Source of the DNA: Hydrolagus colliei
Taxonomy: Eukaryota
Direction: 5' to 3'
NCBI GenBank assembly: GCA_035084275.1
Contig: CM068754.1
Span: 15,748,001-15,812,000 of the forward strand
Length of the DNA: 64,000 nucleotides
Shown here in pieces: positions 4,701-56,943 of the stretch. How positions within the stretch are numbered: position 1 is the stretch's first letter; the number at the start of each line of letters is the position of its first letter. The position numbers and the translations under genes are program-made. Under the pieces are notes generated by a model, which saw nothing but the letters and a program-made list of their open reading frames with translations, searched no databases and was not told the origin of the DNA.

Positions 4701-7700
4701 GACGTATCCTGCTCCGAATGATGGTTGGGGGTTTACATTAACCTGACCTCTGTCCGTGAAATGAATTAATCCCAGGATTCACATCCCCTGGAATGGCCTG
4801 CACATACTCAGTACCACTCTGGTGTCCCTTGCTGATGAAACTCAGAGAAAACTTTGGGTCCTGAACATTTTCTCAAAGAATTCTTGACTTTATTTGGCAA
4901 GTGGCTGCACTGAAATGTCTCCGTTGTGGAAACTGGGACTGAAAAGTCTAAACAGCTGCTTGTGATTTACAACCACATAATGAGCCGTTGTCAGTTTGGC
5001 TTAGGCTATGAGAGCGTTAGTGGAATTTTCGTACTCCTGGTCTGTTTACAGAAGCCAGAATTTATCCAAACCTAAAACGCAGGTTCAACGTTTCACTGTC
5101 AAAGATTCTCTGCTGGGTTGACGCACGGGCAAACTGCACGAGCCATGATTGGTAATAATTCACTTTTACAACGCCTGGCACCATCGCCAAGTATGTTAAA
5201 TTTTAAAAAAAAGTAGTTCAACATAGTACATAAACTCAAACTGCAATACCAAAATATAGCAGCTCGCCAGGCCGATAAACGAACAGAGATTCGGCTAACT
5301 TCAAAACTTCAATGGCTTTACCTTGTTATTAATCCATTCAGTCATTGGATTTCCCAGCTTTCATCTGCTACTTTATTTGTTGGAAGTAATACATGGTCTC
5401 GAGTCTTTTGGGAACTCAGTGAAAAAAAAAGATTTTTTTTTTTTTTTGCGTCTCTTCATGCCTTCAGAAGTTCAGAGAGTTGGCGGTTTGAATGTGGATC
5501 AGTCTTGCACCAGGTGGAATTTAGTGTCAGCTTGACTCAGCTGGTAACATTCTCGCCTTTGAGGCAGTGGATTGCGGCTGCAAGCCTCCACGTCAGGACA
5601 TTGTACTCACACTTTGGGCTGACATTCTCAATCCATTGCTGGGGAGGTTGGGAGTGGGGGAGAGGTGGGGGGGGGAGGTGATTTGATACGTTGTCGGAGA
5701 TGCCATCCTTTGGATAAGACAGCATCGAGGCCAACGAGTTTAATTGTGATGTTTTTAAGACTGGGGGGTTTACATTGGAGCACTTTATAAACAAAATTCA
5801 ATGACTGTCTCTCTTCCTGCACAGAGATGGACCTCTTTCGCCAGTATCTCCCGACAGCAACTCACTTGTCCGTGCCTTCAGCAGCTCAACATCAACCTTT
5901 ATAATGGACGAACATGTTCAGCTCACAACGGGACTGCAGACACAGGAGAGACACCTCTTCCTCTTCAGTGATCTGTTGGTGATCGCCAAATTAAAGTGAG
6001 TGTTTGGTATTACGCACTGTTCAGTCAGTTCCAAGTGACTTCCATTAAGATTCTGTGTTATGATCAAATAAGTCAGCGAGTCAGCAGATATATAATGCTT
6101 CAAACTGGTTGAATCAGGCACTGTGGTTCCTCATTTAGTTCAGATTGGGTGACACTTTACGGGATTACAAAATAATAATTTGGTCACTCAATCCATGACT
6201 ATGAGAGTGAGTGAATGGCTGTCCCGTTTTGCGCCCAAAAGGCACAGTCAATTCACTTTGCAGTATATTCTGCTATGAACTTTGAGATGTCTCAATGATG
6301 TCATTATAATAATAATAATTATAAGGCATAATATTAAATGCAAGGATTATTATATTACTCGGGGTTACGGGTTAACTGCAGATCCTTGTGACAATTCTTA
6401 TCCATTAATTCGCCCACAAGTATACAGTCAATTCATTTTACGGTATATTTTGTGAAGTGCTTTGAGACGTCCAGAAGATGTGAAAAGCACTATATCAAAT
6501 GCAAGGATTATTATTATTATTGTTTTCTAAAATAATTCTGAAAAATGTCCCTGAAAGAACAAAAAAGGGAAAACACCAGCTGGATCTGTTCATTGTACAC
6601 GATTTCCTTTATAACGAAGTGCGAATGAGACCAATTTATAGAACACTGTTGTAGCCAAAGACAATATCACGTGTTAGATTTAGGTAACGCTTTAACAATA
6701 ATAATCCTTGCATTTGATAAAGGGTACATGTAGTACATGGACTATAGACTGGAGCTGGGAGGGTAGCTTTTAAATAACACCAAGGTTGTGTGCTATATAC
6801 ATGTATGTATGTACTGTATATATTTAGAGAGAGAGAGGTGGGCTTTCCTGACATTGAATATGCGTAAATAAACTCAGGCAAATGGCCAGTACAGGCATGA
6901 TTTCCTGCTCAATGCAGTGCTGGGAATACTAACTGAGATTTTAACTAGCACACATAGTTAAATACCAATAGCGACTGAAGCTTTCTGTTGGTCTTTTATT
7001 ACTACTAATCGTCATTGATCCTAAGTAAGAATAAGAATAATCCTTGCATTTGATATAGAGCTTTTCACGTCTTCTAGACATCTTAAAGCTCTTCACAGAA
7101 TATCCTGCAAAGTGAATTGACTTTATTTGTAGGCGAAACTTGGTGGCCAATAGCGCACAGCAGTGTCCCACAAACAGCTGTGGATTGAAATGACAAATTT
7201 ATTATTATTTTTTCCGAGGGATTATTTATTATAAGGCGTGTGAGTAAGGAAACTCGCCCAAGGTTTTGGCTTGCCTGGAATCAAACCCAGGTCTCTCACT
7301 TGCAAGGCTAGTGCTCTAACCACTGAGCTACAGGAACTCCATTGTGAAATAATGAAGACCTTAAATAGCACGTAGCTTAAGATATCTTCGTTATTATACA
7401 TTTACGTCGAGAGAAATTGTGGAGACAAAATTAGCATCACATGATAATATGTTTGTTCTAGTGATGATCAAAATGAACACAACAACAGTGCTGCAAGTTA
7501 TTGTTGAAACTCTTTTACATTTCCCACCGTTGTTCCCCTTTCTCGATGCCACACAGATCTTCCACGAGCTTAAAGCCAAAGAACCAGGTCAGACTGTGTG
7601 AGATGTGGATTGCCTTCTGCATCGATGAAGTGTGTGAGAGGAAGACGACAGCCGAAAATTCCTTCGTCATTGGATGGCCCACAACTAACTGCGTGGTGAC

Positions 7701-10700
7701 ATTCAGGTGAGTGAAGTGAGGGAGTGAGCGGGCGGGACAGGCAGGCGGGCAAGTGGATGGTCGTAGATGTTTTGGATGTTTCCTTAGCATTCCTTGGAGG
7801 GTGCAGTACAAGTACTATAATAGGGCGTCCAAAGCAATGTTCCTTCTACTTATCAGATCTCAACTGCATCTCTTTCAGTTGTTCGGATGTGAGAGAGAAA
7901 TGGCTTTCAGCTCTGCACTGGTAAGTGTTTTTATTCACATTTGAAGCGGTGGCACTCTCGTTGCCATCCCCACAAACAATGATGTTATAAACGAAACGCA
8001 CCCAACAGAACTGGAGAATTGCAGTGGAATAGGTATTATTTCCTGTAGTTAAACTGCAAGTCGTCTTATCCGCTGCATTTCGCTTTACAAATCTGAAATA
8101 ATACAGTGACAGTGTGGTCAGTTATGAAACACTAAATCAAATGTAAGGATATACAATTTTTTAAAGTGCTTAAGATTACCCACAAGTTCCAAGTAGATCA
8201 CTGATACCTAGGTCGACATGCAGTTTGTAGTGGAGACACCAAGACATGAAAAGCGTCATATCAAATGCAAGAATTATTATTATTATTAAAATTCCTGGTG
8301 TTCGGTCTCTTTACAGGCAAATCAAAGAAATGAAAATGGATGAACTTCGAAAGAAAACATTTATGAAAGTTACGGTCATGCCAGTCAGGAGTTGCACCTG
8401 TGTAAGTATTATCATTTAATTGCTCCATTTTATAGATACAAAGAGCGACAGAAAGGACCTTTCATATTCCTTGCTTCCCTTCAGAATGTGCTAAGCACTT
8501 TGACTGAGTTTTATAATGATAAACAATGTTACAGTGATCTTCTAAAGATAGACGTTTGATCCCAGGATGTTGTCTTCTTACGTAAGCAAACTCTAGCGCG
8601 AAAGATAACTGAAATCTGCGATTTAGCTCCACAAGTTAAAGTGATCGTTCTCGCTGTGACCAGGTTATTCAAACCCGCAAACTTTACTGGGTAACTCAAC
8701 AACGCTCGAATAAGCATAAGCATTTCGCCCCATTTAATTACTGAGCGCAGAACACCAAAAGGAATTTGTTACACTGAATTGATATCCTCCCTCGGTCCTC
8801 AAAGCCATGTCCTTGTCAGTAATTATTTTGCATTGGATTGATGTGAGTTGAGTGGTTTGTTTTTCATTTTCATTTTTGCTCTCAGACATTAACGCTTTCG
8901 GTAAGCAACACAGATACAGCAGACAACGTCATTAAAATGGCAACAAAGCAACTGGAAGCAAGAGTGAGTTACCATCAGATTCATACGCACTCACGAGAGG
9001 CGCTAACATTAACCCTGTTTGCTTTATAATAATAATAATAATCCTTGCATTTGATATAGTGCTCTCAAAGCACTTCACAGAACATACAATATACAATTAC
9101 ACCGCTTGAAGCATTCGAAGTGCGCAGAGACAGCTTGTGACGGATAATGCAAATTATAATGGAAAAACGCTGCGTTAAAATGGAATGGAAAACGTAGCCT
9201 TTTTCTTGCGATCACCGAGGTTTAGATCCTCCCGCGCGCACCTTGCGTCTTGTCTGTGCTTAGCTGCGGACAGACAACCTCGTCCTCCCTACAGCTGATA
9301 CCTATCTTTCTTCCTTGAAGCACAAGCAGGGGAGTGCGGGTGACTACCAGCTTTGGGTGATTTCAGGAAAAGAGGATGCACCGTACCCACTCATTGGTAA
9401 GTCCTGCGAGTTTCCAGAGGTTTGTCACACAGAGAGGTGAGCCTAAAGAAGGCAGGAAATTTGACAATTATTATAATAATTATGATAATAATAATAATCC
9501 GTGCCTTTGATATAGCGCCATAGCACTTTTTCGAGATGTTTCAAAGCCCTTCAATAGCTCCCAACTTATAGAGAGGGAAGGATGTCTTTGGCATAATAGT
9601 CATTGAAATGCTGCAGCTCAAAGGTCCTCATCCAAATTGAAACACACAAGAGCCACTGGATTGAATGGGACTCACAGGTTCGCTCTTGAAAGAGCCGCCA
9701 CTGACACAATCGATTGGATGGCCTCCTTCTGTGCTGTAGATCTCTCTGGTCCTGTGGAAGAAGAACACATTTCTCCGAAGGTCAACACATGGTCAGTTTT
9801 CCAAGGTTCCACTCCGATGCCTCACCAAATCAACTCGACTTCGTAGTCGCTTGTTGGTGACCAGGTCTTGACCTCGCCAGAGCTCGACTGTACTGTGTAT
9901 TTATAGAACAGCAGATGGAGGACTTTCGAGTATGGGAAAGCACTCGTTGGATCGATGCCAAGAGAGGATCATTGACAAGACTGTGGGTGGGTGGTCACGG
10001 CATCGTTCTTGACATCACGAGCTAGTGCGGAGTCTTGACATTCCTCAGCTCCGGAAGACTGTCGTAACTGTCTTCAAATTCTAGCTCATGCGGAGAAGCG
10101 CCACCCGCTTCCAAATTAACCGTGAATTTTTTTTTGCCAATCTGTGTGATCTTAAATTTGAACGCAGAAATGGTCTCGTCAAAGTCTTAAGACTGGATGG
10201 AATTTTTGGTGCCTCGTCTCTCCATCCTGTGCCACCTCACCTAATAATTTTACGTTTGCTGCGCAGTGGTGAGTTTCAATTTCTAAATTTTCCTCATTCA
10301 AACAAACAAACAGCAGTACCTTTTTTCCTTCGTAACACCTTCGCCCCATAAAAAAATACACTCGTCAATTTCACTTCACAGCCCGTTTGGTGAAGCGCTT
10401 TGAGATGTCTCGAAGACGCTATGAGGCGCCACACACAAAAAAAACAAGGATTGTTATTGGCAGGACTAGGATTACAGTAATTATTTCAATGATTTATTGC
10501 CAGGAACAGTGAATGTCTCTTAAAACTGGGGAGCCATAACAAGCAAGAAAAATAACATGCCAACAAGCCGTGATTGGGTTTTGAGGTTGAGGTCGGTGTG
10601 ACCAATTGCGAAAGATGAAGGGAACATGACGAGCGGCATGTTGTCCAAGCGAGGTCACGGGGCAGGACACAGATCCTTGGCCCTGACAAGCCAGGTGTCC

Positions 10701-13700
10701 TTGGCAATAGATATCCAAACCTCTGAGTTCACAGCGATATAAAAAGCCAAAGTTGGCCACAGCACGTCTAAATACTTTAAAACCGGATTAGTGGTGTGGC
10801 TAGACTTACACCACAAATAGACTGGTATGTCACTCCCCCCCGGCAGGAAAGCTAATGGCAATCTCTGCCGTTTAATAGAAAGTCTATTTGTGTCTTAGGC
10901 TGTATTCATTACAGGCAACATTTCTGAACGTGTAAAGGTTCCTTCTATTATTTCATACTAGTTTAGGGGAATTCTTACTTAAGGTTGACTGTTGTGTTGT
11001 GTTATTTTTCGGTCTTTATTCAGACAACCAAAAGTTTTGGACTTTCACATTTATCATTGGCTATTCACGGAATATGAACCTGAAGAATGTGTCTCCGTCG
11101 CAAAGATATGTCCCCATTAAAGAGACTCGGGGACGAACTGATAGTATTGTACAGTGACAGAAACAGCATTAAAGTCATACAAAGTACTGTAGATCAGTGG
11201 TTAGAGCATTCGCCTTACAAGTGTGACACCTGTGTTGGAATCCAGGCAGGTCAGGGCGAAACCTTGGCCAAGTTTCCTTACTCCACACTCCTATAATAAT
11301 CCCATAAAAAATAATAATAAAATTGGTCATTTCAATCCATGACTGTTTGTGGGACAATGCTGTGCTCAATTGGCTGCCATATTTCACCCACAAGTATGCA
11401 GCCAATTCACTTTACAGTATATTCTGTGAAGTGCTTTGAAACATCTAGAAGACATGAAAAACGCTATATCAAGCCCTATATAAATGCAAGGATTATTATT
11501 ATTATATTGTGACTTCATATTGTGTTCAAGTTACTTTTTGAAATGAATCCAATGTCTCGGCTTCAACCACCCTTTCTGGCAACCGGTTTCAGTTGTTAAT
11601 TAACCTCTGGATAAAGGAAATCTGCCTTGTTCCGTCTGTCCGTAGATTGCCCTTTGAAATTCAAAACAATTATCCTGCCTGGTGCATTTCTCTCTCTCTC
11701 TCCCACCACCTCACCCCCTCCTCACCAAAAAAAAATACATTTGAGAAGTAAATAAAAATGAGAAGCTCAATTCCTGGCACCATCCTCCCCGACTGTGGCT
11801 ATTGCTTTGTCTCTGATGTCCCCTTTACACAAAGAATAGTGGAAATCTGGAACTTGTAGCCTCAAAAGTACTGGAGCCCATTGTAATTTTCGATGGGAGT
11901 TGAGGTACAGATCAGACGTGTTCTAGTAGTATGGCGGAGCGGGCTCGAGTTGCCTGAAATGACTTACTCCTGAACTTCTGTTCCCGAATTAATGACCGAT
12001 CAATGAACTGCTCTTCGTTTCAGGGCACGAGTACCCGTTCAGCATCATAACAAACTGCCTGAGAGATGTGGCCGCCCGGGTGGAGAGATCTAACAGCAAC
12101 GTGCAATCACAGGACAGCCACCAAGACGACCTCTTTGAGCAGCTGCCAAAACGCAAGCAATGTCAGTTCATCTTGAAGCCAAGACCCCAGGCTGATGTGC
12201 ATGTGACCAGAGGTGAGCGCAGACTGAAGGAATCCAAACTATTCACTGAGTGGGAAGTGTTTGCATTCAACGGTTTCAATAGCCCAGCACAGCGGGAAGC
12301 ACTCTTCACATTTTTAGGCCCATGAATAATTCGTCCACAATTCGGTGGAGGTTTCTTTTTTCCTGCGGTCAATGATGCAAGTGTGACAAACGATGTCTTG
12401 TGGGATAATTTAGTTCTACCACACCCTTGCGCTAACACGCAATGGTTTGTTCATGATCAGGGCTGTTCCACTTCACCGCTCTACAAGCCTTTGCCCGCGT
12501 CAACCCGCGCCTAATACTCTCCGGAATTAGATAAGCGGGATGCGTCCCTCCAGGGAGAAGGAGAGTGCGCTGTCTATCCATTTTCTTGTGTAGGTGAGAT
12601 GCATGGAATTCCCTGTTTGGTTTGGCTGCCTTTAAGCGCGGTGATGGACTTCCTTCCGTATGTGTCAAACAACCAGCTGACACCCAAAATAATTACTGCC
12701 ACTAGTTCGTTAGAAATTTATAGAAAATGACAGCACAGAAGAGGACCCTTTGGCCCATTGTTTGTGAGCTGGTTCTTTGCAAGAGCAATCTTACTTAGTT
12801 TGCTGAGCTCCGTTACCCCATCCGTAGGCCGGTAAATTACTCATTTCGTTCGATATCTACAGTGTCCAGTTCCCTCTTGTGCTTCAACTAACAACACCAA
12901 CAACAACTTGCATTTATATAGAAGTCCCATTGGGGTATAATTAAGAAGGTCCTTTGGGACAAATTTGCTTTGTTGTTACTGGGAGAGAAGATACGTTATT
13001 GCATTAGGAGGGTTATTATTTCCTGTTGCTCTAGTTAATTGCCACACTAATTGAGATGCACTGGTGTTGTTCCTTCACCGAGGTCAGGCTATTTATGGCA
13101 TAATTGCACGCAGACTGTTCCTGTTTTCGAGTCTCTGTGGAAAATGTGATAGGGATCTGTTTTTACACACACAGATGACATTTTGAAGATTAGTTTCTCT
13201 ATTCAACAACCAGCAGCAAGTTGCCGGCTATTATTGGCTGTGCGTACGCACATTGTTGGTGGCAAACTCGAGTTGCGTAACGTCTCTCACCCATCAAATG
13301 TAATGTGTTATTGTTGCTGTTGTTGTTATTCTTCTTATACCTGCCTTGGCATTACAATTACCTAATCCCTACACTTTACAGAAACTTTACAAAGTAGAGG
13401 ATTGTTGATACAGTACTTTTAAATGCTTGGCACATTATACCTTAGCCGTAGTCTGATTTTCTTTTGTTTCTTTCTTTCTACATTTCCAGTAACGCTTCCG
13501 AGGCCGCTGAAAAAGAAGAAGTCATTGATTGACTGGGCGTTCCGCCGAGGCCCTCACATTAACGCAGACAACGACTCTCAGTCGGGGTCTCCGATAATCC
13601 CGAGGAAGCTTTTTGGCCTCTCGCTGCCCTCCATCTGCAAGAACGGGACCCTCCCCAAGCCCATCAGGGTAAGCGACCCCTTTAGGAAGCTGTACGATCC

Positions 13701-16700
13701 TCAGTTTGGTGGCCAAGAGAAAGAGATGGCTTCTTCACCCCAAACCTGCCTTGTGATAAATTGGTCGTTTTAATCCACGACTGTTTGTGGGACATGGAAA
13801 GTGCTAAATCAGATGCAAGGATTATTATTATTATTAGTGCTTACTGTAACCCAACCCAGCTTTCAGCATCACTTCCTCGCTTGCCCCCAGAGTGGGCCAG
13901 CAATTTCGCTTCTCTAGAGTTTCCGTGTAAGGGAGACGCAGAAATTAAAAAAAGAATCTGGCTGGCTGTGGAATCTGTGACACATTCTGACCCGCGACGC
14001 CTTTGGTTTCCTCCAGGACATGCTACTGCTTCTATATCACGAAGGTCCCACCACCAAAGGCATCTTCAGGCGCTCGGCCAATGCCAAGACCTGCAAGGAG
14101 CTGAAGGAGAAGCTGAATTCTGGAAATGAAGTGCACATGGAAATAGAATCTGTCTTTGTGGCGGCTGCTGTCATTACGGTATTATATTCTGTTCGACAGT
14201 CTTTGTACAGTAAAACCTCGAGTATCCGGTACCCAACCAAACGGCATACTCAACCAACCGGTATCTCCCAATACAATTCACCATTTCAGCAACTCAGGTC
14301 TCATACCGTAGCCGTCTGGGACACTCGCGAGTATGCTCACTTTGCGCATGCGTGCAATGCCTATGCAAATGCGCACTTATTAAACCCACCGAACACCGGA
14401 ATGATTTTTTAACGATTATTTTACCGAGTGTGCCGGAATGCTTTATTGGTAAGTATCCCTACAATATTCTGTTATTATTCAATCTATTATTAATATGGTA
14501 TGTTTTAAAATAAGTGCATTTTGGGGGTTGGATTTTCGGCAACTTGCCACTCCGGCGTGTTTGATTAATCGGCTCTGGGCAAGTCCCGAGGGTGCCTGAT
14601 AACAAAGGTTTTACTGTACATATGTTTTTGGTGGTGGGAGGAGGGTGGTCTGGAAATTTTTCGTGGGCCTGCAAATATTTTCTGACAGGAGGTTACTTTC
14701 CCTGCGCAGGATTTTCTCCGCAATATCCCCGGCAGCGTTCTGTCGTCGGAGCTGTACGACAGGTGGATGGAAGGAACAGGGAACGAGAACGAAGAGGAAA
14801 GGATACAAGCCTTGAAAAAGTGAGGAGAAAGCCTCTTTTGAGGATGTGATTGCGTGGCTGCCCGTGCATCGGTCCGACCGAGACTGACTGTATCGACGTG
14901 TGTGCGTGAGGTGGACAGTGGTGTTGACGGGTGTGTGATTCCGAGCAGAGAAACGCTGCGAGCTTAAGAGATCTCTCTGTTTCCCGGGTGTGCGCTGGAT
15001 GCCGGGAATAATAACGCGTTCCCGATGTTTTTGCAGACTCGTGGAGGAGCTTCCCGAAGCGAATCTTCTCCTCCTTCGTCACTTGTTCACCATTCTCCGC
15101 CGCATCGAGATGAGGTCGGAAGAAAACCAGATGACGGCTTTTAACCTGGCTCTTTGCATAGCCCCCAACATGTTGTGGCCGCCCGGGCCTGTGGGCCCCG
15201 AGGAAGAGAGTAAATCCACAAGAAAGGTAACGTACTTTCTCTTTCCCTGAATTCTACAGGGTGTCCGCAAAGTACTGTTACCGTGTTTCTTTTCAACAAC
15301 AACAACAACAAAATGACATTGGTAACAGTGCCTTTCATGTTGGCAGGACCTTCCCGAAGCGCTGGACAGTTTGTCTCGTAGTCAAGTCAGTAGTTTGACC
15401 AACAACGGAAACACTTGGAAGAACAATGATAGTTGTATTCAGCAGTATTTAATTGTATTCAGTACCTGTGTGTAACTGTGATTAGAAGTCCAGAGGATAG
15501 GGGTAATAGCTCTCAATCCCACACTCTCGGTAACACCTTCCAGCCCCTGTCGGCCCAATGCTCAGAGAATCCTTGACAGTCTCTTCGCAAAACATCAACA
15601 CGGGGAGAACTTTGGTGACTTTAACTCAGCGGAAAAGCTTGGCCTCCGAGTGTGTTTATGTGGGCAATTAGACTAACAATCATAAGTGTGTGTAATTGCC
15701 ACAGCTCGGGAGGATCCACATAGATCCATGTACATGATAATGCGGTTGTGATTCAGCTAACAGTACAGTTTGAGCCGTAGCTGTTCGGCGTAGTAAGTAG
15801 TGTGATCGTGTCCGCGCTATTGCTTCAAACAAAGTAATGATCTAAAATGTATTCTGCCGTGATAAGGCACTACATCAACTGCAAGGATTGTTATTAACAG
15901 AAACGTCCCCCCACCCCCACACAGAACTCCCTCCCCCACTCCCCCCCCCCCCCCCCCCCCCCCCGCCAGCCCATAGTCAGGCCGTTGTTAAGCGCTCTGA
16001 GGCGCTACCTGGTGCGGAGGGCGCTGTTTAAGTGCAAAGTTGTTGTTTGTTGTGGTTGTTTCTGAGTTTGGGATTTCTTGGCTTTTTTCAGGTGGCTTTG
16101 CTGGTGCAGTACCTGATAGAAAACTCTCCCAGGATCTTCGGCGATGAAGTTCTTTTACTCTTCGCGGGTTCCGCCGACGTTCAGCAGGAGAATCTGGAAG
16201 ATTCACTGGGTCAGTGCAATCTCCTCAGCGCTGCTACTTTGTTGTTTTAGCAAAAAAAAATCTTATTATCCATTTAACGCATCAAGCGTGCTTTTTAAAT
16301 GAGTCCAGTGTCCTGACCTTAACCACCCTTCCTGGCGACTTGTTCCAGGTGTTGATTACAGACACGGCGAAACCTTGGGCCAATTTCCTTGCTCCGCATG
16401 CCTGATAATAATACCCCCCAAAAATAATAAGAAGAAATTGGTCATTTCAATCCACAACTGTTTGTGGGGACACCGCTGTGTGCAATTGGCTGCCGCGTTT
16501 CAGCCACATATGTACAGTCAATTCACTTTACAGTATATTCTGTGAAGCGCTTTGAGACGTCTTGAAAACGTGAAAAACGCTATATCAAATGCAAGGATTA
16601 TTATTATATCCTCAAGGATTGATTTTGCTTTCCTGTTTACGTTCTTACAATCTAAAGATCTTGTCCTTGCCTGGTGTTCTCTGTCCGTGTGGTCCTAATC

Positions 16701-18443
16701 CTTCTCTCGGTTTCACTTGATGTTGCAGATGTTGATTTGCTGAAGCAGCACTATTCCTCCGATGACATGGATTCCCCGCTCTCCAATCAGGAGAGGAGAA
16801 GGGTCGACAAGGGGCAGGAGAGCGACGATCTCTTTAGCGGCTTGAACGACCCCTTGCTGGACCCCGACGAGGAGGCAAAGGATACGTGGAGTGGGCAGGG
16901 CTTCTTTGACGATGATTTGTGCAAAAACGTTCTTCTGGAGAACAACGACGGTACCGATCTTTCCGAGCAGCTGGAAAGCGAGTCTCTGTACTCCTCGGTC
17001 TCTTCTCTCGTCGGGATCCAGAGCATTGGATCCGCTCGAGATCGGTGCTCGTCAGAGCCCAGTGTGTGCCTGGCCCACCGTGTGGCCTTGTCTCACGAGC
17101 CCGTGGCCCGTCAGTTCAGCTGTGACGCTGCCGTGACTCACGGCCACATCGATTACTTGCAGCAGCTGAAGAGACTGCAGATCGAGAGCCAGAGGCTGCT
17201 GGACGATGGGAGAGGACCTGGCTCTAATAAGAACAGATATGTTTATTGGAGATCGCCGCAGATCAATCCCAGGCTGATACAGCCTAGTTCGTACAAAATG
17301 AACCTATCCACCAGATCAAGCCTCTCCAGCCTATCTTCTCCCACCACGTCGCCATCGGAGTCCTCACTCAGCTCGGTGGACAGCGCCTTTTCCTGCTCCG
17401 ACTCGTCCGTGTTTGGCCGGAGCGAGACCGTGTTCGGGAACTCCGGCAAAGGGCAGGTGTCCTCACCTTGTTCCCCCAATAAAATTCCCGTCAAGCTGCA
17501 CGGAGCTCCCTCCGCCTCGATGGCCCGTTGCCTCGAGGACGTTGATTGGTACGACGAAGAGGCGGAGAAGGACGCGGACTTGGAGGCGGAGCAGGCTCGG
17601 GAACCGCGGAGCCCAGCGTCTTGCCCGGAAGGTCAAGGGCTCGACATGGACGTCAAAGGCCAAGGGGAGGACGGGAAAAGTTACACCAGCGTGGCTTACA
17701 TCAGAAAGGGCCAAACAGGGACTTTGTTTGCCCAGAACGACAGGGAGGAAGCGGACAGAGGGAGCTGCGGGGAGGCGGAGAACGAGACGTCTCGTCCCAA
17801 AGCGTCCCAGACCTTCCCGGCCTCACCCGACACACAGCAGACACCCTGCAGCGAGAACATGAAGCGCACAAAGATAACCTTGTACATGGCGCCAGGGAAG
17901 GCGCTACCCCTTCAGCGCGGGGGAGATCCGGGCGGGCAGGAGCTGGGCAGCGGCGGGGACTGTGAGGCCTCAACGGCCCAGGAGAAAGACGGAGTAGGTC
18001 GACTGGTGCAGACACTGAAAGTCCACATCCCGCAGACTGTCTTTTACGGCCAGAACGCGCCGTTGGTCCTCCAGTCCGCTGCACGCAGATTACACATCAC
18101 GCCCGGCGACGCTTTGCTCAAAGGCTCGTCCGCGGATTCCGCGTCCCGGGGCAGCGAACAGTCGCCGGACTGTTCCGTCCAGTCCGCCTGCCCCCACGGT
18201 TATTACCGGGACAAAAGCGCGAACAGCAAACGGCACAGAATCCGCATCATCTTACCTCCGCCCGTCCAAAACACGGTCCATCAATACTTCCTTCACAGCG
18301 AGGCCCAGAACTGCGTGAGGGAGGCCGCAGCGGTGGAGAGCGAGTTAATAAGGAGCAGGCAAGAGTGGCGCCACCGCCGCTGCACTGACCCCCAATTAGA
18401 AGACTTTGAACAATTAATTTTCACAGAGGAATCGTACGTCTGA
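1748..18443 (+). CDS. ARHGAP20: Rho GTPase-activating protein 20-like (PH + RA + RhoGAP; ARHGAP20/TAGAP family; probably a paralog rather than the 1:1 ortholog), 14 coding exons
   Basis: Exons with GT-AG ends and consistent phases: 1748-1830 (acceptor at 1744, so an upstream exon probably exists), 5825-5995, 7557-7706, 7879-7920, 8317-8401, 8886-8963, 9330-9396, 12024-12212, 13490-13668, 14017-14178, 14710-14819, 15037-15226, 16092-16209, 16729-18443. Total 3339 nt = 1112 aa + stop. Motifs match ARHGAP20: MKPAIQRRRSAP, QERHLFLFSDLLVIAK (PH), SFVIGWPTTNCVVTF, DYQLWVISGKEDAPYPLIGHEYPF (RA), KLFGLSL, GPTTKGIFRRSA (arginine finger), DFLRNIPGS, NQMTAFNLALCIAPNMLW. Ends in EESYV. Confidence 0.9.
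2788..3184. mobile_element. Tigger/pogo-like MITE (Tc1-mariner superfamily)
   Basis: TA|CAGGTAGAACCCGTTTAAC ... GTTAAGTGGGGTCTACCTG|TA: imperfect terminal inverted repeats with TA on both sides, ~400 bp, no transposase. Confidence 0.7.
7027..7340 (-). mobile_element. Full-length tRNA-derived SINE with LINE2-type tail
   Basis: Head gtagctcagtggttagagc...gggtttgattcc (A/B boxes), conserved body tgtgggacactgctgtgcgc, tail gtgaaaagctctatatcaaatgcaaggatta. Confidence 0.85.
11183..11503 (+). mobile_element. Full-length tRNA-derived SINE
   Basis: Same head, body and (TTA)n tail as the other copies; boundaries approximate. Confidence 0.85.
14208..14616. mobile_element. Tigger/pogo-like MITE in a RhoGAP-domain intron
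   Basis: Left end TA|CAGTAAAACCTCGAGTATCCGGTACCC; reverse complement of right end CAGTAAAACCTTTGTTATCAGGCACCC, followed by TA. Confidence 0.75.
16368..16606 (+). mobile_element. 5'-truncated SINE
   Basis: Starts at gcgaaaccttgggc; body and (TTA)n tail present. Confidence 0.8.
16729..18443 (+). CDS. ARHGAP20: Large terminal coding exon of the ARHGAP20-like gene (Ser-rich, probably disordered tail ending in ESYV)
   Basis: Corresponds to the 589-aa ORF 16674-18443. The real exon starts after the pyrimidine tract and ttgcag at 16728, in phase 1 with the preceding exon. GC-rich coding composition. Confidence 0.9.
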
Positions 18444-23922: not shown

Positions 23923-26900
23923 TCACTGCTTGTTTGCACCGACTGATTTCCTGATGTCAGCCATATCCTTTGGCACCTTCATGACCATCCCCTCCATAGA
24001 CCTATTCAAGCAGATCTGGCAACCCAGGCGTGACCTGGAAAAAGGACGCATTGGTACTGTGAGGTGTGGGGCGGGTGGGTGGGGGGGTGAGGGGTGTTGT
24101 TAGACGAGTATTAGACAATTATTATAATAAAAACAATAATAATCCTTGCCATTTGATATTGTGCCTTATCATGTCGTTGAGAGGTCTCCAAGCGCTTCCC
24201 AGAATATACTCTAAAGTTGTTTCGAAAGTCACTGACCATTTATTGCCCACCAGATTAAATCGCCCCATTCTGTAAGTACGGCAACTGATCCCGGCAGACC
24301 GCATTCCCGGAAGTTTCTATCTTAAACGGAGGCTTGGTCCTCCTTGCGTTCTAGTTTACAGATTGTTCCTGTGGATTCGTGTCCCTGGGAGATTCCGCCT
24401 TTGTCATTTTTAATAATAATTATTATTGTAATAATTAACAATTGAGATAAAAATTGAAATGTATTCAAATAAAAATGAAGGATTGGACCCATTGAATTTG
24501 CTCTTCCATTGAACTATTGATCCCAAGCACGATTCCCTGCTCGGCCCCCTTCAAAGATAAATTGGTCGCTTCAATCCACGACTGTTTGTGAGACACTGCT
24601 GTGCCCAATTGGCTGCTTGCGCATTTCGCCCACAAAATGTAACAGTATATCCTGTGAAGTGCTTTGAAAACGTCTTGAAGACGTGGATAAACTGCTATAT
24701 CAAGCACGAGGATTATTATTTTTAATAATATTACAGTATTAGCAAAGTAATACGTGTCTCACCCACATGCAAGATGTCTTGAAAAGCAATTAAAAAGTGC
24801 AACAAGAAACAAACGCATGTAAACCTTCTGTAAAATGTGTTACACATTTTATCACTCCCTACCGCCCACCCTCCTTCTTTCCCGGCTGCCTGTATTTTGC
24901 TCTGGCTGCCAACATTCCCCCTTTGAAATAACACTACACAGATAATTTCAAGGTCTCCCGCAGTATTTCAATTTTAGCTGTGTTTAAGAGATAAGGATGA
25001 ACCTTGGTTACGAAATAGCTGCAGATATTTAATCCAAATTCCAATGGCTTCTGACTCCACTGCAATGATATGGTCCGTGCTCTTTAATCTCTTGTTCCCA
25101 AGCAATTTGACTCTTAATTGGGGTTGATTTGCTCTTAGTTGGGTTAAGTTCGCTGTTATCTCGGTTATTGAAAGAGGAATTGCAAGGGTTATTTATTAAT
25201 AATAATAAAACTAATCCTTGCATTTGATACAGCGCTTTATCATGTCTTCAAGGCGCCTCCAAGGGCTTCACAGAATGTACCATAAAGTGAATTGACTGTA
25301 TATTTTGCGGGTGAAAATTGATCTTGGTGAAATGGACGATGGAACGATGTTAGATGTTACAACAGCAACAAATTACACTTATAAAGAGTATATTTCACGT
25401 CGGGAGGACGTCCCAAGGCGTTACAGTGGGTTTTCATGCCACTAAGCCACCATTTTAACTCCGAAAAATACCCTGGTCACTTTCGTGCAATCACATTTTT
25501 CTAACGGGGGAATAAACTATGAATTTAATCCACACACCTGCTCTCCCTGCCTCCTCCCCATCCCTCTCCCCCAAACAGAAATTCCTGACATTTTCAGGAT
25601 TTTCAATTGGAGAAGTAGCGGCTATTTCACGAAGCCAATTGGGGTTTTAATGTGGGGAAACAGGAAAACAAAAATCACTAACAAAGCTGTGATCATTTTA
25701 GCTCAAGCACAAAAAGCTCTATGATTCCCTCAGAGATCACATCTGGTCTGGGAGTGGTTTCAGAATCGTAGGCGATTAACTCTGGCAATAGGTACGTGAA
25801 ACACGCCGGGGGCGTTTAAATGAATGTTGCAGATCAAAGGAGTGGCACTGGGAGTTTGCACACAACCTACATATGGTTCAGGAAACGGGCCTTTCATGAC
25901 AAAAACATTGCTTACGTATCACTCAACCCATAGGCCAAATCCAGCATATCCAACTCCTCATCCATAATCTTGTCCAGATTTTCAAAGGTCTCCTTGTCAA
26001 AGATTAGATGGCAGGTCGAGCAGGATAGAGTTCCTTCACAGACACCTGTGGCAGAAAGACAACTCATAACTCATTCATAAGTGCAGTTGACAGTCGTATA
26101 AAATTTGAATCGAGTAATAATGAATTGCCCAGATCAGATAGCATATAAATACACGCTTTGAGATATCTCAATGACGTGATGAGGTTCCAATAATAATGAT
26201 GATAAGATTATTATAATAATAATCATACAAAGGCAGGAATTATTAGGATAAATAATTATTACTGTTATTATATAGCACCTTTTCCATCATGGGGGAGGGT
26301 GGGGTGCCTTCTCAAAGTGCTTCACGCTGCCAATAATTTTTTTAAATAGTTTTTATTGAAAGCAGTAACAACATAAAACTTCAACAATCAAGAAGCCAGA
26401 ACATCAATCAATAACCTCCAGTGCAGTGTCTACAAAGCACGAGTACTCGGACAACTTGCCATGTGTGTTTGTTTTAATGAAACACTTTGATCTCTACAAC
26501 AATGTGTGGTTAATGAGCCATCGCTGTAGAATACTGCGCTGTGTCCGTTATGCTTTAAAGTGGCTCGGCAGTTTATCTGGAGCTTAAGTGACTAATTCAA
26601 TCTTGCAGACATTCTCGGTTTGCTGGTTTGGTTTAAAACATCCTCTAAAAAGAAAACGCTACGTTCACGCGTGCCAAACTACAGACGCGTGCGTTCAAAC
26701 ACACTCACCGAACCCATCGATAGCCAAGTTGTTCTTCATCACGACGTCCAGCAGGCTTTCACCCTCCTTGCCCACTCCTGTAAGAGTTTCCCCATCCTGG
26801 TTGACGAAGTAAACTACCACTTTATCACCGAGTTGGCTGCCGTGTGGAAACGGGAAAGCAAACATTAAAAAAAAACAAAGAAGAATAACAACTGGAGGTT

Positions 26901-29549
26901 GCACCAGATGTAACCGCCACAATCAAAGGGGAACGGAAGAAAACACGGAGTCCGCAAGGTAATGGGTTGTTTGGTAATTGAGATAAAAGGCATGTTTATA
27001 CTGAGAAGAGAGATTCCACAATCCCGGTTTATAGGTACAGTATTTAGTCAAATTCCAGATGACCATAATAATAAGAATAAGAATCCTTGCATTTGAGTAT
27101 AGCGCTTTTCACATATTCTAGACGTCTCAAAGCGCTTCACTGAATATACTGTAAAGTGAACTGTTTATTTGTGGGCGAAACGTGGCAGCCAATTGCGCAC
27201 AGCAGTGTCCCCACAAACAGTTGTGAATTGAAATGCCGAATCTTATTATTGTGGTTTTCTGTGTGGGAGGGATTATTATTAACCATAACCATGAAATCAC
27301 CTCTTTAACTGCCCCAAATTTCGCCTGCAAAATGCACAGTCACTAGATTTTACAGTGAAGCACTTTAGGATACATAGTTTCTTTTCAAATGGTGGGTGAG
27401 TGGTTGCACGTCAGTGTTAAAACACCAGTAAACGTGCATTGGGCCATGGGAATGTTGGTAAATTTTACTTCTAAAACAGTGTGATCTCTTATTGCTTTAA
27501 CCTTCTCAAGACGATTTGTTGAAAATTCCAAAGCGTGGAATGAAGACAAACCGTCTCCAAATTCCAAAATCAGCCCAGCCTCAACACCAGGACTTTGAAT
27601 CTTTGAACATTTTAGCTTGCGATCTGCAAATTTGCTCCCCACCCCTCCCCACCACCCCCCACATCCCACCCACCCCCACCACCCACCCCACACACTGGTG
27701 TTAAGGTTAACACTATGAGTCATCTTGAGCCTCTGGTGTTTTGCTCGTGTTTGTGAAGATTGGCCTCAAGGTTGGCCTCAAGGTTGGCCTCGAGACCAGA
27801 TCAAGGAACGTATCATTTGCAAGGATGCTTGCAAAACCAGCAAACCTGCATGTAAAGGAAATGTTCAATGGCTCTCATATCCTTTGTAGTTACGGACATT
27901 TATATCAATTTAGAAGCACGTCACAGGTCATAAATTTAAAATGCCGGGTTCATAACACAAAACAGAATCTTTCTGCGTATCAGTAGAAGCTTGCGGTTTC
28001 ACTCAAGCTCAAACGAAAAAAAAAAATAGCCTCACTGTGATTGAAAACCCCCTACAATTATTTTTCCAGATGAACTAGTCCCTTGCCTCACGCAAACAAA
28101 AAAAAGTAACGAAAAGATACTTTCAGCCGGAGTGAATCTGCTTCTAGTTTGAAAAAGAAAGACACTGAATAATCTGTAATTACGCAGAACAGACGTTTGA
28201 CAACAACAGCAACAATATTACATTTGTACAGAGGCTTTCACGCCGGGAGGACATCCCAAGGCGCTGAACAGTTGTGGGAGATAATTCAATGGGGGAAGTA
28301 ATGAAGGGTCCACGTCATGTCATAAACCACACCAACTGATTTGCAGTTTGCACAAACCACACTCATTCGGTTTGCAAACTTCAGCTGAACTTGAAAACGT
28401 ACATTTTCACTTGTATTTGAAATTCAATGTGTTTGTCTTTTTCCACATTGGTTCACTTATAAAGCGGATGTCGACAGCAAAATAATATTTTTTTAAATGA
28501 CCTTTCGTCGGCAAATTGCAACTCTAAATAGAAAGTGCCATTTTGAAAAACTATTTACCGCAAAATTTATCTATTTATCTCTCGCAAAAAAACAACGAAT
28601 CTGTTGAGCAAACAGAATGGTAAAACTAAATCTCACGTTTGCAAGCGCAATTCACACTGACCTATTTGAAATTCTCACTTGATGTATTGAGAGCTGGTAC
28701 AAATACACAGTCACTCCATTTCACGTGTGAAGCACTTTGAGACGTCCTTTCCAACGCATCCCCTCCATCTCCCTACTACTTCCATCGGCTTTCCGAAAGG
28801 CTTTGAGATGTGGTATAAAAAAATACAACATAAATCCAAGTCGTTACCATGTAAACCACTCACCCATTTCACTCTCCCATTCACCAGGAACTTTATCTTT
28901 CACTAAGTCTGAAGCAACATTGAAAGGAGGCAATAATTGATTGTGGCAATCCCACAACCTGCCCAACACTCAAAATAAAATTGGTCTCTCACTCCACGTG
29001 CTGCTTGTGGGACATTGCTGTGCGCAATTGGCTGCCGAGTTTCGCCCACAAAATATACAATCAAAACCACTTTACTGTATATCCTGTGAAGCGCTTTGAG
29101 ACGTCTGAACGACATAATAACGTGTCAAATGCAAGGATTATTATTATGATAACAACAGCACCTTGTGTCGCAGAGATCACACCTCGAGGAGAACTTCTGT
29201 TTCCACTTATTCTAGATAGAAAAACACACGCGTTTCGCCCGCAAATATACAGTCAATTCGCTTATATCCTGTGAAATGCTTTGAGACGCCTAGAAGACGT
29301 GAAAAGCGCTATTTCAAAGGCAAGGATTATTATTAAAGTTATTATTACGTTGCATACGCGTAAGCCTCACCTGCTGCCTGCCGCAGAGTCACTCCGGAGC
29401 TCGGACGATAGACTCAAAAGCCTTTTCGGCAGCTTTGCGGTGGGTTGGTCAAATGGAACTGGTTGCAGCGCAGAAGACCCAAAGCACCGTACTTGTTCGA
29501 AAACCAATCCACGCACCATTTGCAGCCTGGTCCAACGTAGAGACATCAT
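23923..29549 (-). CDS. fdx1b: Adrenodoxin / mitochondrial ferredoxin of FDX1 type (probable fdx1b paralog), 4 exons, 182 aa
   Basis: Exons 29549-29371, 26836-26709, 26045-25916, 24034-23923 (549 nt; intron phases 2,1,2). Basic, Ser-rich N-terminal transit peptide ([14 protein letters not shown]...). Mature part is [92 protein letters not shown]..., with four [2Fe-2S] Cys ligands and the acidic DEExDMLD helix. FDX1-type, not FDX2. The 'b' assignment is inferred from linkage to moesin. Confidence 0.9.
27760..27794. repeat. 12-bp tandem repeat x3
   Basis: ttggcctcaagg ttggcctcaagg ttggcctcgag. Confidence 0.85.
28975..29335 (+). mobile_element. Two tandem SINE 3' fragments in ferredoxin intron 1
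   Basis: Body plus tail at ~28975-29147 and a second tail at ~29228-29335, ending ~35 bp from the exon 1 donor. Confidence 0.8.
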
Positions 29550-29692
29550 CTTTGCAACCGCTGACAAGGAGCCTGGAGCTGTTTTGCCTGGACGAGATAG
29601 CGATTGTGTTTTTCTAGTTTACTCGTGACTCGCCCGAGAGTCGCAGATAGGCTCGGAAAGAAAGGTTGGCCGGCTGCCCAACGTGAGCTGTC

Positions 29693-29701
29693 CCAAGGTC
29701 A
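29693..29701 (+). promoter_or_regulatory. SF-1/NR5A consensus site upstream of the ferredoxin gene
   Basis: CCAAGGTCA is an exact YCAAGGYCA match, ~145 bp upstream of the ferredoxin ATG at 29549. Confidence 0.55.

Positions 29702-39303: not shown

Positions 39304-56943
<17,640 letters not shown>

Follow-up and report, generated by a model that had tools for sequence, protein, structure and literature searches.

The 64-kb stretch of Hydrolagus colliei DNA analyzed here (contig CM068754.1, positions 15,748,001 to 15,812,000; hereafter the window) carries a gene which we identify, with a probability of about 0.88, as the holocephalan FDX1B, encoding a mitochondrial [2Fe-2S] adrenodoxin that is older than the ancestor of jawed vertebrates and is most likely a genome-duplication ohnolog. 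From ATG to TGA the gene occupies positions 23923-29549 of the minus strand, exactly the extent given by the original prediction, an earlier annotation that had called it intact and clearly FDX1-type. This description holds: an open frame of 549 nucleotides in four coding exons encodes 182 amino acids plus the stop, with 0 internal stops, and the three introns are all GT-AG (phases 2, 1, and 2), with interspersed repeat copies filling about 20% of the gene and confined to the introns. All cluster ligands are kept (C46, C52, C55, and C92 of motifs 1 and 3, in mature numbering), as are D72, E73, D76, and D79 of the partner helix, H56, and P108. Against the PDB, exon 3 matches mammalian adrenodoxins with E-values of about 1e-16 to 1e-14 (56-62 bits) and human FDX2 with an E-value of only 6e-4 (23 bits), which assigns the gene to the FDX1 type; exon 2 also matches mammalian adrenodoxins, and Pfam gave no score for single FDX1B exons searched one at a time. 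The N-terminal 60 amino acids (6 R, 2 K, 2 D, 2 E, and 10 S) are rich in R, S, and L, are homologous to the leader of the Callorhinchus milii protein and, judging from this composition, look like a mitochondrial presequence. About 12 nucleotides above the ATG (29561-29572, minus strand), a pyrimidine tract followed by CAG forms a possible splice acceptor, which would mean that a non-coding exon lies further upstream; in zebrafish fdx1b, too, there seems to be one exon more, with motif 1 in exon 4.

Phylogenetic placement was based on database searches in which the best 120 of 371, the best 120 of 8000 (profile search), and the best 150 of 4299 matches were listed. Among the 120 listed profile matches, 20 carry the name 'ferredoxin 1b' and come from C. 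milii, 11 elasmobranchs, two bichirs, gar, and five teleosts; in the same set, at least nine chondrichthyans including C. milii possess both FDX1B and canonical FDX1, and five of them entered the tree. The main tree comprised 66 rows and 123 columns, with 56 named or window rows picked for lineage cover and 10 unnamed outgroup rows. In this tree, the window protein pairs with C. milii fdx1b (support 100/99), its sister in every tree, within a chondrichthyan FDX1B group of sharks, rays, C. milii, and the window (100/91), which in turn belongs to an FDX1B clade of 29 rows (100/96) comprising sharks, rays, bichir, sturgeon, gar, teleosts, lungfish, turtles, crocodilians, squamates, and birds. Of 182 positions, 139 are identical to C. 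milii fdx1b versus 87 to the second C. milii copy, and the best match of exon 3 is C. milii 'ferredoxin 1b' (83%). V71 is found in the named ray-finned fdx1b rows and S71 in the canonical copy of the electric eel, and Griffin 2016 reports these residues for zebrafish Fdx1b and Fdx1, respectively (PMC4769370).

The conjecture that the window gene is an ortholog of fdx1b is thus upheld, since it groups with named ferredoxin 1b genes apart from canonical FDX1 and is linked to msn (see below). The approximately unbiased (AU) test rejects a clade of teleost fdx1 plus fdx1b (p = 0.0007), and both copies are carried by gar, bowfin, sturgeon, bichir, and sharks, which rules out a paralog born in the teleost genome duplication; as had been proposed, the fdx1/fdx1b split predates that duplication, and it is also older than the chondrichthyan/bony-fish divergence. 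The reach of fdx1b beyond teleosts was likewise correctly anticipated, although the clade is wider than expected, extending to lungfish, reptiles, and birds, and less new, since the names already exist. Among the listed named matches, no mammal, frog, or spiny-rayed fish row fell inside FDX1B, the absence itself not having been searched for. FDX1B of birds, crocodilians, turtles, and squamates is labelled 'adrenodoxin-like' and is apparently unstudied.

That the window gene is simply the sole, divergent canonical FDX1 of H. colliei deserves almost no credence. It would fit the canonical-like residues G23 and I94 and the fact that the H. colliei evidence is one 64-kb window of the genome, but it is opposed by the identities to the two C. 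milii copies, by the AU test, which rejects the window gene as a canonical chondrichthyan FDX1 (p = 0.0005), and by a neighbor that is moesin and not radixin; membership in the canonical FDX1 orthogroup is therefore rejected. By analogy with C. milii, a canonical FDX1 is very probably also present elsewhere in the H. colliei genome.

Linkage to msn, which the original prediction had named as a check, is observed as well. In the window FDX1B lies beside msn, and in 11 of 13 other species (Scyliorhinus, Mustelus, Carcharodon, Heptranchias, Rhinoraja, Leucoraja, Polypterus, Huso, the teleost Dallia, Protopterus, and Alopecoenas) FDX1B and moesin are on a longest contig of equal size, where each protein's longest contig was compared by eye within species and equal size means a shared scaffold or chromosome, mostly not adjacency. 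Closeness beyond a shared contig is found in Dallia, with consecutive locus tags (DPEC_G00231570/231580), and in Alopecoenas, with a 350-kb scaffold. The contig of canonical FDX1 coincides with that of moesin in 0 of 10 species and with that of radixin in both informative species (Carcharodon and Anolis; Cetorhinus was uninformative). The neighbor itself is a moesin: it shares 96% identity with C. milii moesin a, 87-89% with shark and ray moesins, and 83% with radixins, it scores 174, 169, and 158 bits against moesin, radixin, and ezrin in the PDB, and in a 31-row ERM tree C. milii moesin is its sister (100/100), the two falling among the chondrichthyan moesins (99/95), with the moesin/radixin split at 94/83. 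All six 'hypothetical' or partial ERM proteins tested were also moesins. Bird FDX1B genes are mostly on contigs of 19-26 Mb, like the moesin-bearing one, and one falcon ferredoxin of the FDX1B clade bears the source label 'Moesin', as expected if neighboring gene models merge. Zebrafish RNA-seq supplements list fdx1b, fdx1, msna, and arhgap20 without coordinates (PMC6197330).

On the other side of FDX1B lies an ARHGAP20-family gene, recognized by Pfam RHG20_PH (E = 6e-13), a RhoGAP domain, and a best PDB match to ARHGAP20 (3MSX, E = 7e-19; the next match 2.5e-6), which is probably the moesin-side ohnolog of ARHGAP20. The order msn-FDX1B-ARHGAP20-like mirrors RDX-FDX1-ARHGAP20, the human gene order, and thus the window appears to hold the sister block and FDX1B is most likely an ohnolog. 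The origin of FDX1B precedes the common ancestor of all living jawed vertebrates and was shared with its ERM and ARHGAP20-family neighbors, and an origin in the vertebrate genome duplications, in either the first or the second round, is quite likely: the neighbors were co-duplicated and both copies occur in chondrichthyans, with a root that shifts with the outgroups and named rows that include neither cyclostome nor amphioxus. Four FDX1-like proteins (P0259, P0260, P0264, and P0268) branch beside those of jawed vertebrates and may represent paralogs from cyclostomes.

Several observations count against this placement or its dating. The trees were computed without zebrafish Fdx1b and placental FDX1 and on only 123 columns; the tie to zebrafish Fdx1b consists of source names and the V71 match, the zebrafish sequence being absent from the listed matches; the synteny comparison is one of shared contigs, and Rhynochetos and Acipenser sinensis gave no FDX1B/moesin contig match; and of five clade-diagnostic columns, the four scored in the window are divided among one B-type, two A-type, and one neither, none of them decisive. 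In addition, outgroup rooting falls inside canonical FDX1. With the four nearest unnamed outgroups, a monophyletic canonical FDX1 is marginally rejected (p = 0.03), and with invertebrate-like outgroups only it is not (p = 0.17). These rooting results are what would be expected if FDX1B, while preceding the gnathostome radiation, originated by segmental or later duplication from within canonical FDX1, or if the chondrichthyan and bony-fish copies were separate duplicates: once outgroups are included, canonical FDX1 becomes paraphyletic, its chondrichthyan members being sister to FDX1B (97/84), and a chondrichthyan-only duplication is rejected more weakly than the other alternatives (p = 0.02). 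We nevertheless consider such an origin unlikely. The outgroup-chosen root yields a species order that nobody accepts, costs 68 duplication and loss events compared with 49 for the cheapest root, on the FDX1B/canonical branch (the next costs 52), and shifts when the outgroups change; the ERM and ARHGAP20 families were duplicated along with FDX1B; and the msn link is common to sharks, bichir, sturgeon, teleost, lungfish, and bird. In the ingroup-only tree, the FDX1B/canonical split has a support of 99/97 and each half is roughly in species-tree order. We read the odd outgroup root as a probable artefact of the short alignment.

Single residues do not place the window gene, and its placement as FDX1B therefore rests on trees and neighbors. 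The original prediction had stressed differences from human FDX1 at normally conserved positions, and the quoted motifs are real: GVCEGTLSC and DEELDMLD in the window versus GACEGTLAC and DEENDMLD in human FDX1 (PDB 3P1M, stated to be human in PMC12855868). Position 75, however, is not normally conserved. Among 54 named FDX1B and 54 named canonical FDX1 sequences, L75 occurs in 32 and 18, respectively, most of the remainder have M, and N is seen in 0 and 1 (1 of 108 overall); the high share of L75 among the first search matches was due to the query, the wider set having L or M in both clades. S51 appears once per set (Naja in FDX1B and C. milii in canonical FDX1), whereas V45 is unique to the window (0 of 54 in either set and 0 of 217 database loop motifs). 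These substitutions thus fail as signs of paralog identity or specialization: L75 and S51 cross both clades, and C. milii fdx1b has A45, A51, and M75. Real trends between the clades lie elsewhere, in T71 (12 of 54 FDX1B versus 52 of 54 canonical FDX1), in Q14 (19 of 54 versus 0), and in the mean charge of the mature domain (-8.2 versus -12.3, with -9 in the window).

The window copy shows 11-14 private changes versus 2-6 in C. milii fdx1b, corresponding to a two- to threefold faster rate, with relative-rate p-values of 0.007-0.33 over six outgroups, below 0.05 with two of the six; its odd loop residues reflect drift specific to this lineage, on a branch that evolves somewhat faster. A deep mutational scan of human FDX1 (PMC12855868), in which 0 is silent-like and about 1 null on the paper's scale and the read-out is cuproptosis and not P450 turnover, gives -0.32 for A105V, 0.40/-0.44 for A111S, 0.15 for T131M, 0.15/0.66 for N135L, 0.32/-0.60 for R74Q, 0.05 for H70Y, and -0.12/-0.42 for V165M, compared with 1.03/1.51 for C106A and 0.90/1.08 for D136R; window-type changes thus look mostly tolerated, N135L being mixed. 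That V45, S51, and L75 retune the cluster or the partner interface for a special P450 reaction of cartilaginous fish, such as 1-alpha-hydroxycorticosterone synthesis, is very improbable: besides the mostly near-silent scores of the corresponding human changes, all shark, ray, and C. milii fdx1b proteins have A45 and A51, so V45 and S51 are not common to the animals making this steroid. Canonical FDX1 of C. milii (P0438) has S51 and V71, both seen here in the opposite paralog, and holocephalan ferredoxins seem to tolerate such changes in either copy. In catshark and sevengill fdx1b (P0397 and P0410), D79 of the acidic helix is replaced by E or G, and most shark and ray FDX1B proteins have F82 instead of Y82.

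Mitochondrial import, cluster binding, and electron transfer from ferredoxin reductase (FDXR) to P450 enzymes are established for the adrenodoxin family. By the same route, the presequence would direct H. colliei FDX1B into the mitochondrion and then be cleaved off, the mature protein would bind a [2Fe-2S] cluster via C46, C52, C55, and C92, and electrons would pass from FDXR through FDX1B to mitochondrial P450s (CYP11A and CYP11B/C), with handover by the acidic D72-D79 helix. The candidate regulatory element listed in Table 1 conforms to the NR5A-type consensus. Strict sites of this type number two in the 64 kb versus 3.35 expected, and the chance of one falling within 200-500 nucleotides of the FDX1B ATG is about 0.01-0.03; the degenerate pattern is not enriched (11 sites versus 10.3 expected). 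In intron 1 (27756-27791), a 12-bp unit is repeated three times in tandem, and two of the units hold a degenerate NR5A-like 9-mer, likely by chance.

Table 1. Positions of FDX1B exons, the candidate upstream site, and neighboring genes in the window.
Feature	Position	Strand	Remarks
FDX1B coding exon 1	29371..29549	-	179 nt; ATG and presumed mitochondrial presequence; aligns over its whole length with the presequence of C. milii fdx1b
FDX1B coding exon 2	26709..26836	-	128 nt; mature domain begins; KEGES motif typical of the FDX1B clade; Q14, Y10
FDX1B coding exon 3	25916..26045	-	130 nt; loop C46, C52, C55 and acidic helix D72-D79
FDX1B coding exon 4	23923..24034	-	112 nt; C92, P108, stop
Strict NR5A (SF-1/LRH-1)-type element CCAAGGTCA	29693..29701	+	candidate site; 144-152 nt upstream of FDX1B ATG, non-repeat
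Moesin (msn)	39304..56940	-	12 coding exons, 578 aa without the short first exon; upstream of FDX1B, same strand
ARHGAP20-family RhoGAP gene	5898..18443	+	PH, RA-like, and RhoGAP exons, 1.7-kb last exon; convergent with FDX1B; 5' start approximate

For cartilaginous fish, the dedicated steroidogenic role suggested in the original prediction is plausible in view of the one candidate NR5A-type site upstream, and we lean slightly toward a steroidogenic-tissue bias of FDX1B in chimaeras. In zebrafish, fdx1b expression is restricted to interrenal, gonad, and brain, and the gene is essential for cortisol synthesis (PMC4769370), and pike FDX1B is testis-biased, like STAR (log2 fold change -6.0; PMC13296275). 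A goose 'adrenodoxin-like' gene drops in atretic follicles (PMC9843891) and chicken adrenal contains an 'Adrenodoxin, FDX1L' protein (PMC7985386), the identity of both as FDX1B being unconfirmed. Such a role is tempered by human FDX1 being an SF-1 target too (PMC6463655), by the excerpts of a 2026 shark interrenal study, in which ferredoxin has 0 occurrences (PMC13678717), and by the upstream evidence being one 9-mer, with its distance counted from the ATG, just above which a splice acceptor may lie, and not from the transcription start. ERR factors, moreover, bind the same element as NR5A. It is accordingly possible, at somewhat less than even odds, that the orthology is right and the function unpartitioned, with chimaera FDX1B broad, redundant, and relaxed and the steroidogenic restriction having arisen in ray-finned fish only. 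The closeness of chondrichthyan FDX1B to canonical sequences, the long ray-finned FDX1B stem (0.18), the faster window copy, and the silence of the shark excerpts would agree with this; the retention of FDX1B in at least nine chondrichthyans and many sauropsids speaks against plain redundancy, and the NR5A-type candidate site and the goose and chicken data, as far as these concern FDX1B, also point the other way.

A bolder reading, to which we give a little less than even odds, is an ancestral split in which radixin-linked FDX1 served general tasks (lipoylation and the P450s of bile acid and vitamin D metabolism) and moesin-linked, NR5A-driven FDX1B was the dedicated steroidogenic partner. This arrangement would have been kept in sharks, chimaeras, reptiles, and birds, whereas FDX1B would have been lost in mammals and apparently in frogs and spiny-rayed fishes, with FDX1 taking both jobs; where it was kept, the arrangement may have gone unnoticed because the copy is labelled 'adrenodoxin-like' or 'FDX1L'.

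As regards the remainder of the window, a pattern search for the first coding exon of moesin above 56940 found none within the window, and this exon may lie past 64000. The last exon of the RhoGAP gene had low, unrelated matches in the ESM Atlas (best 0.83), and its RA-like exons received no Pfam score. Seven weak tRNA-like matches (31-43 bits; at 7272, 22504, 31135, 33413, 50152, 51463, and 52515) are most likely heads of a tRNA-derived short interspersed element (SINE), and another repeat family reaches as many as 30 copies within the 64 kb.

Griffin 2016 described fdx1b as a teleost-duplication paralog and zebrafish as the only teleost keeping both genes (PMC4769370); both statements are contradicted here. 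NCBI already names shark, ray, C. milii, gar, and bichir genes 'ferredoxin 1b', and searches of the open-licence literature turned up no paper that deals with fdx1b beyond teleosts. The ancient origin of FDX1B as a gnathostome-wide paralog is well supported and constitutes a modest but useful correction, and the gene in the window is, taken alone, an ordinary ortholog that joins a known orthogroup. Because FDX1B is a gnathostome-wide paralog, the zebrafish fdx1b mutant models a paralog, and not the ortholog, of human FDX1. For steroid studies in sharks, reptiles, and birds, including CYP11 reconstitution and adrenal transcriptomes, which ferredoxin acts becomes a needed question, and FDX1B offers a direct test of whether steroidogenic specialization is ancient.

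Among known proteins, the closest to the window gene is C. milii 'ferredoxin 1b' (AFK11629.1; P0001), which also has 182 amino acids, aligns without gaps in the presequence, and is identical in the last exon except for four residues; it has H10, R14, A45, A51, T71, and M75, where the corresponding window residues are Y, Q, V, S, M, and L. Elasmobranch, bichir, gar, and salmonid proteins named 'ferredoxin 1b' belong to the same clade, share a scaffold or chromosome with moesin, and have a variable position 71 and a less negative mature domain. The 'adrenodoxin-like' proteins of sauropsids, sturgeon, and lungfish are also of this clade; the sources of the sauropsid copies do not use the name fdx1b, and functional data for FDX1B members outside teleosts were not found. 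Zebrafish Fdx1b (PMC4769370), by clade and naming probably the same gene, shares a non-phosphorylatable residue 71 with the window protein but has 168 amino acids and motif 1 in exon 4, compared with coding exon 3 in the window. Human and bovine FDX1 (PDB 3P1M and 1AYF) share the fold motifs, the cluster ligands, D72, D76, D79, H56, and P108; they are nevertheless paralogs, members of the canonical clade, which has T71 in 52 of 54 sequences, is more acidic (mean -12.3), and is linked to radixin in Carcharodon and Anolis.

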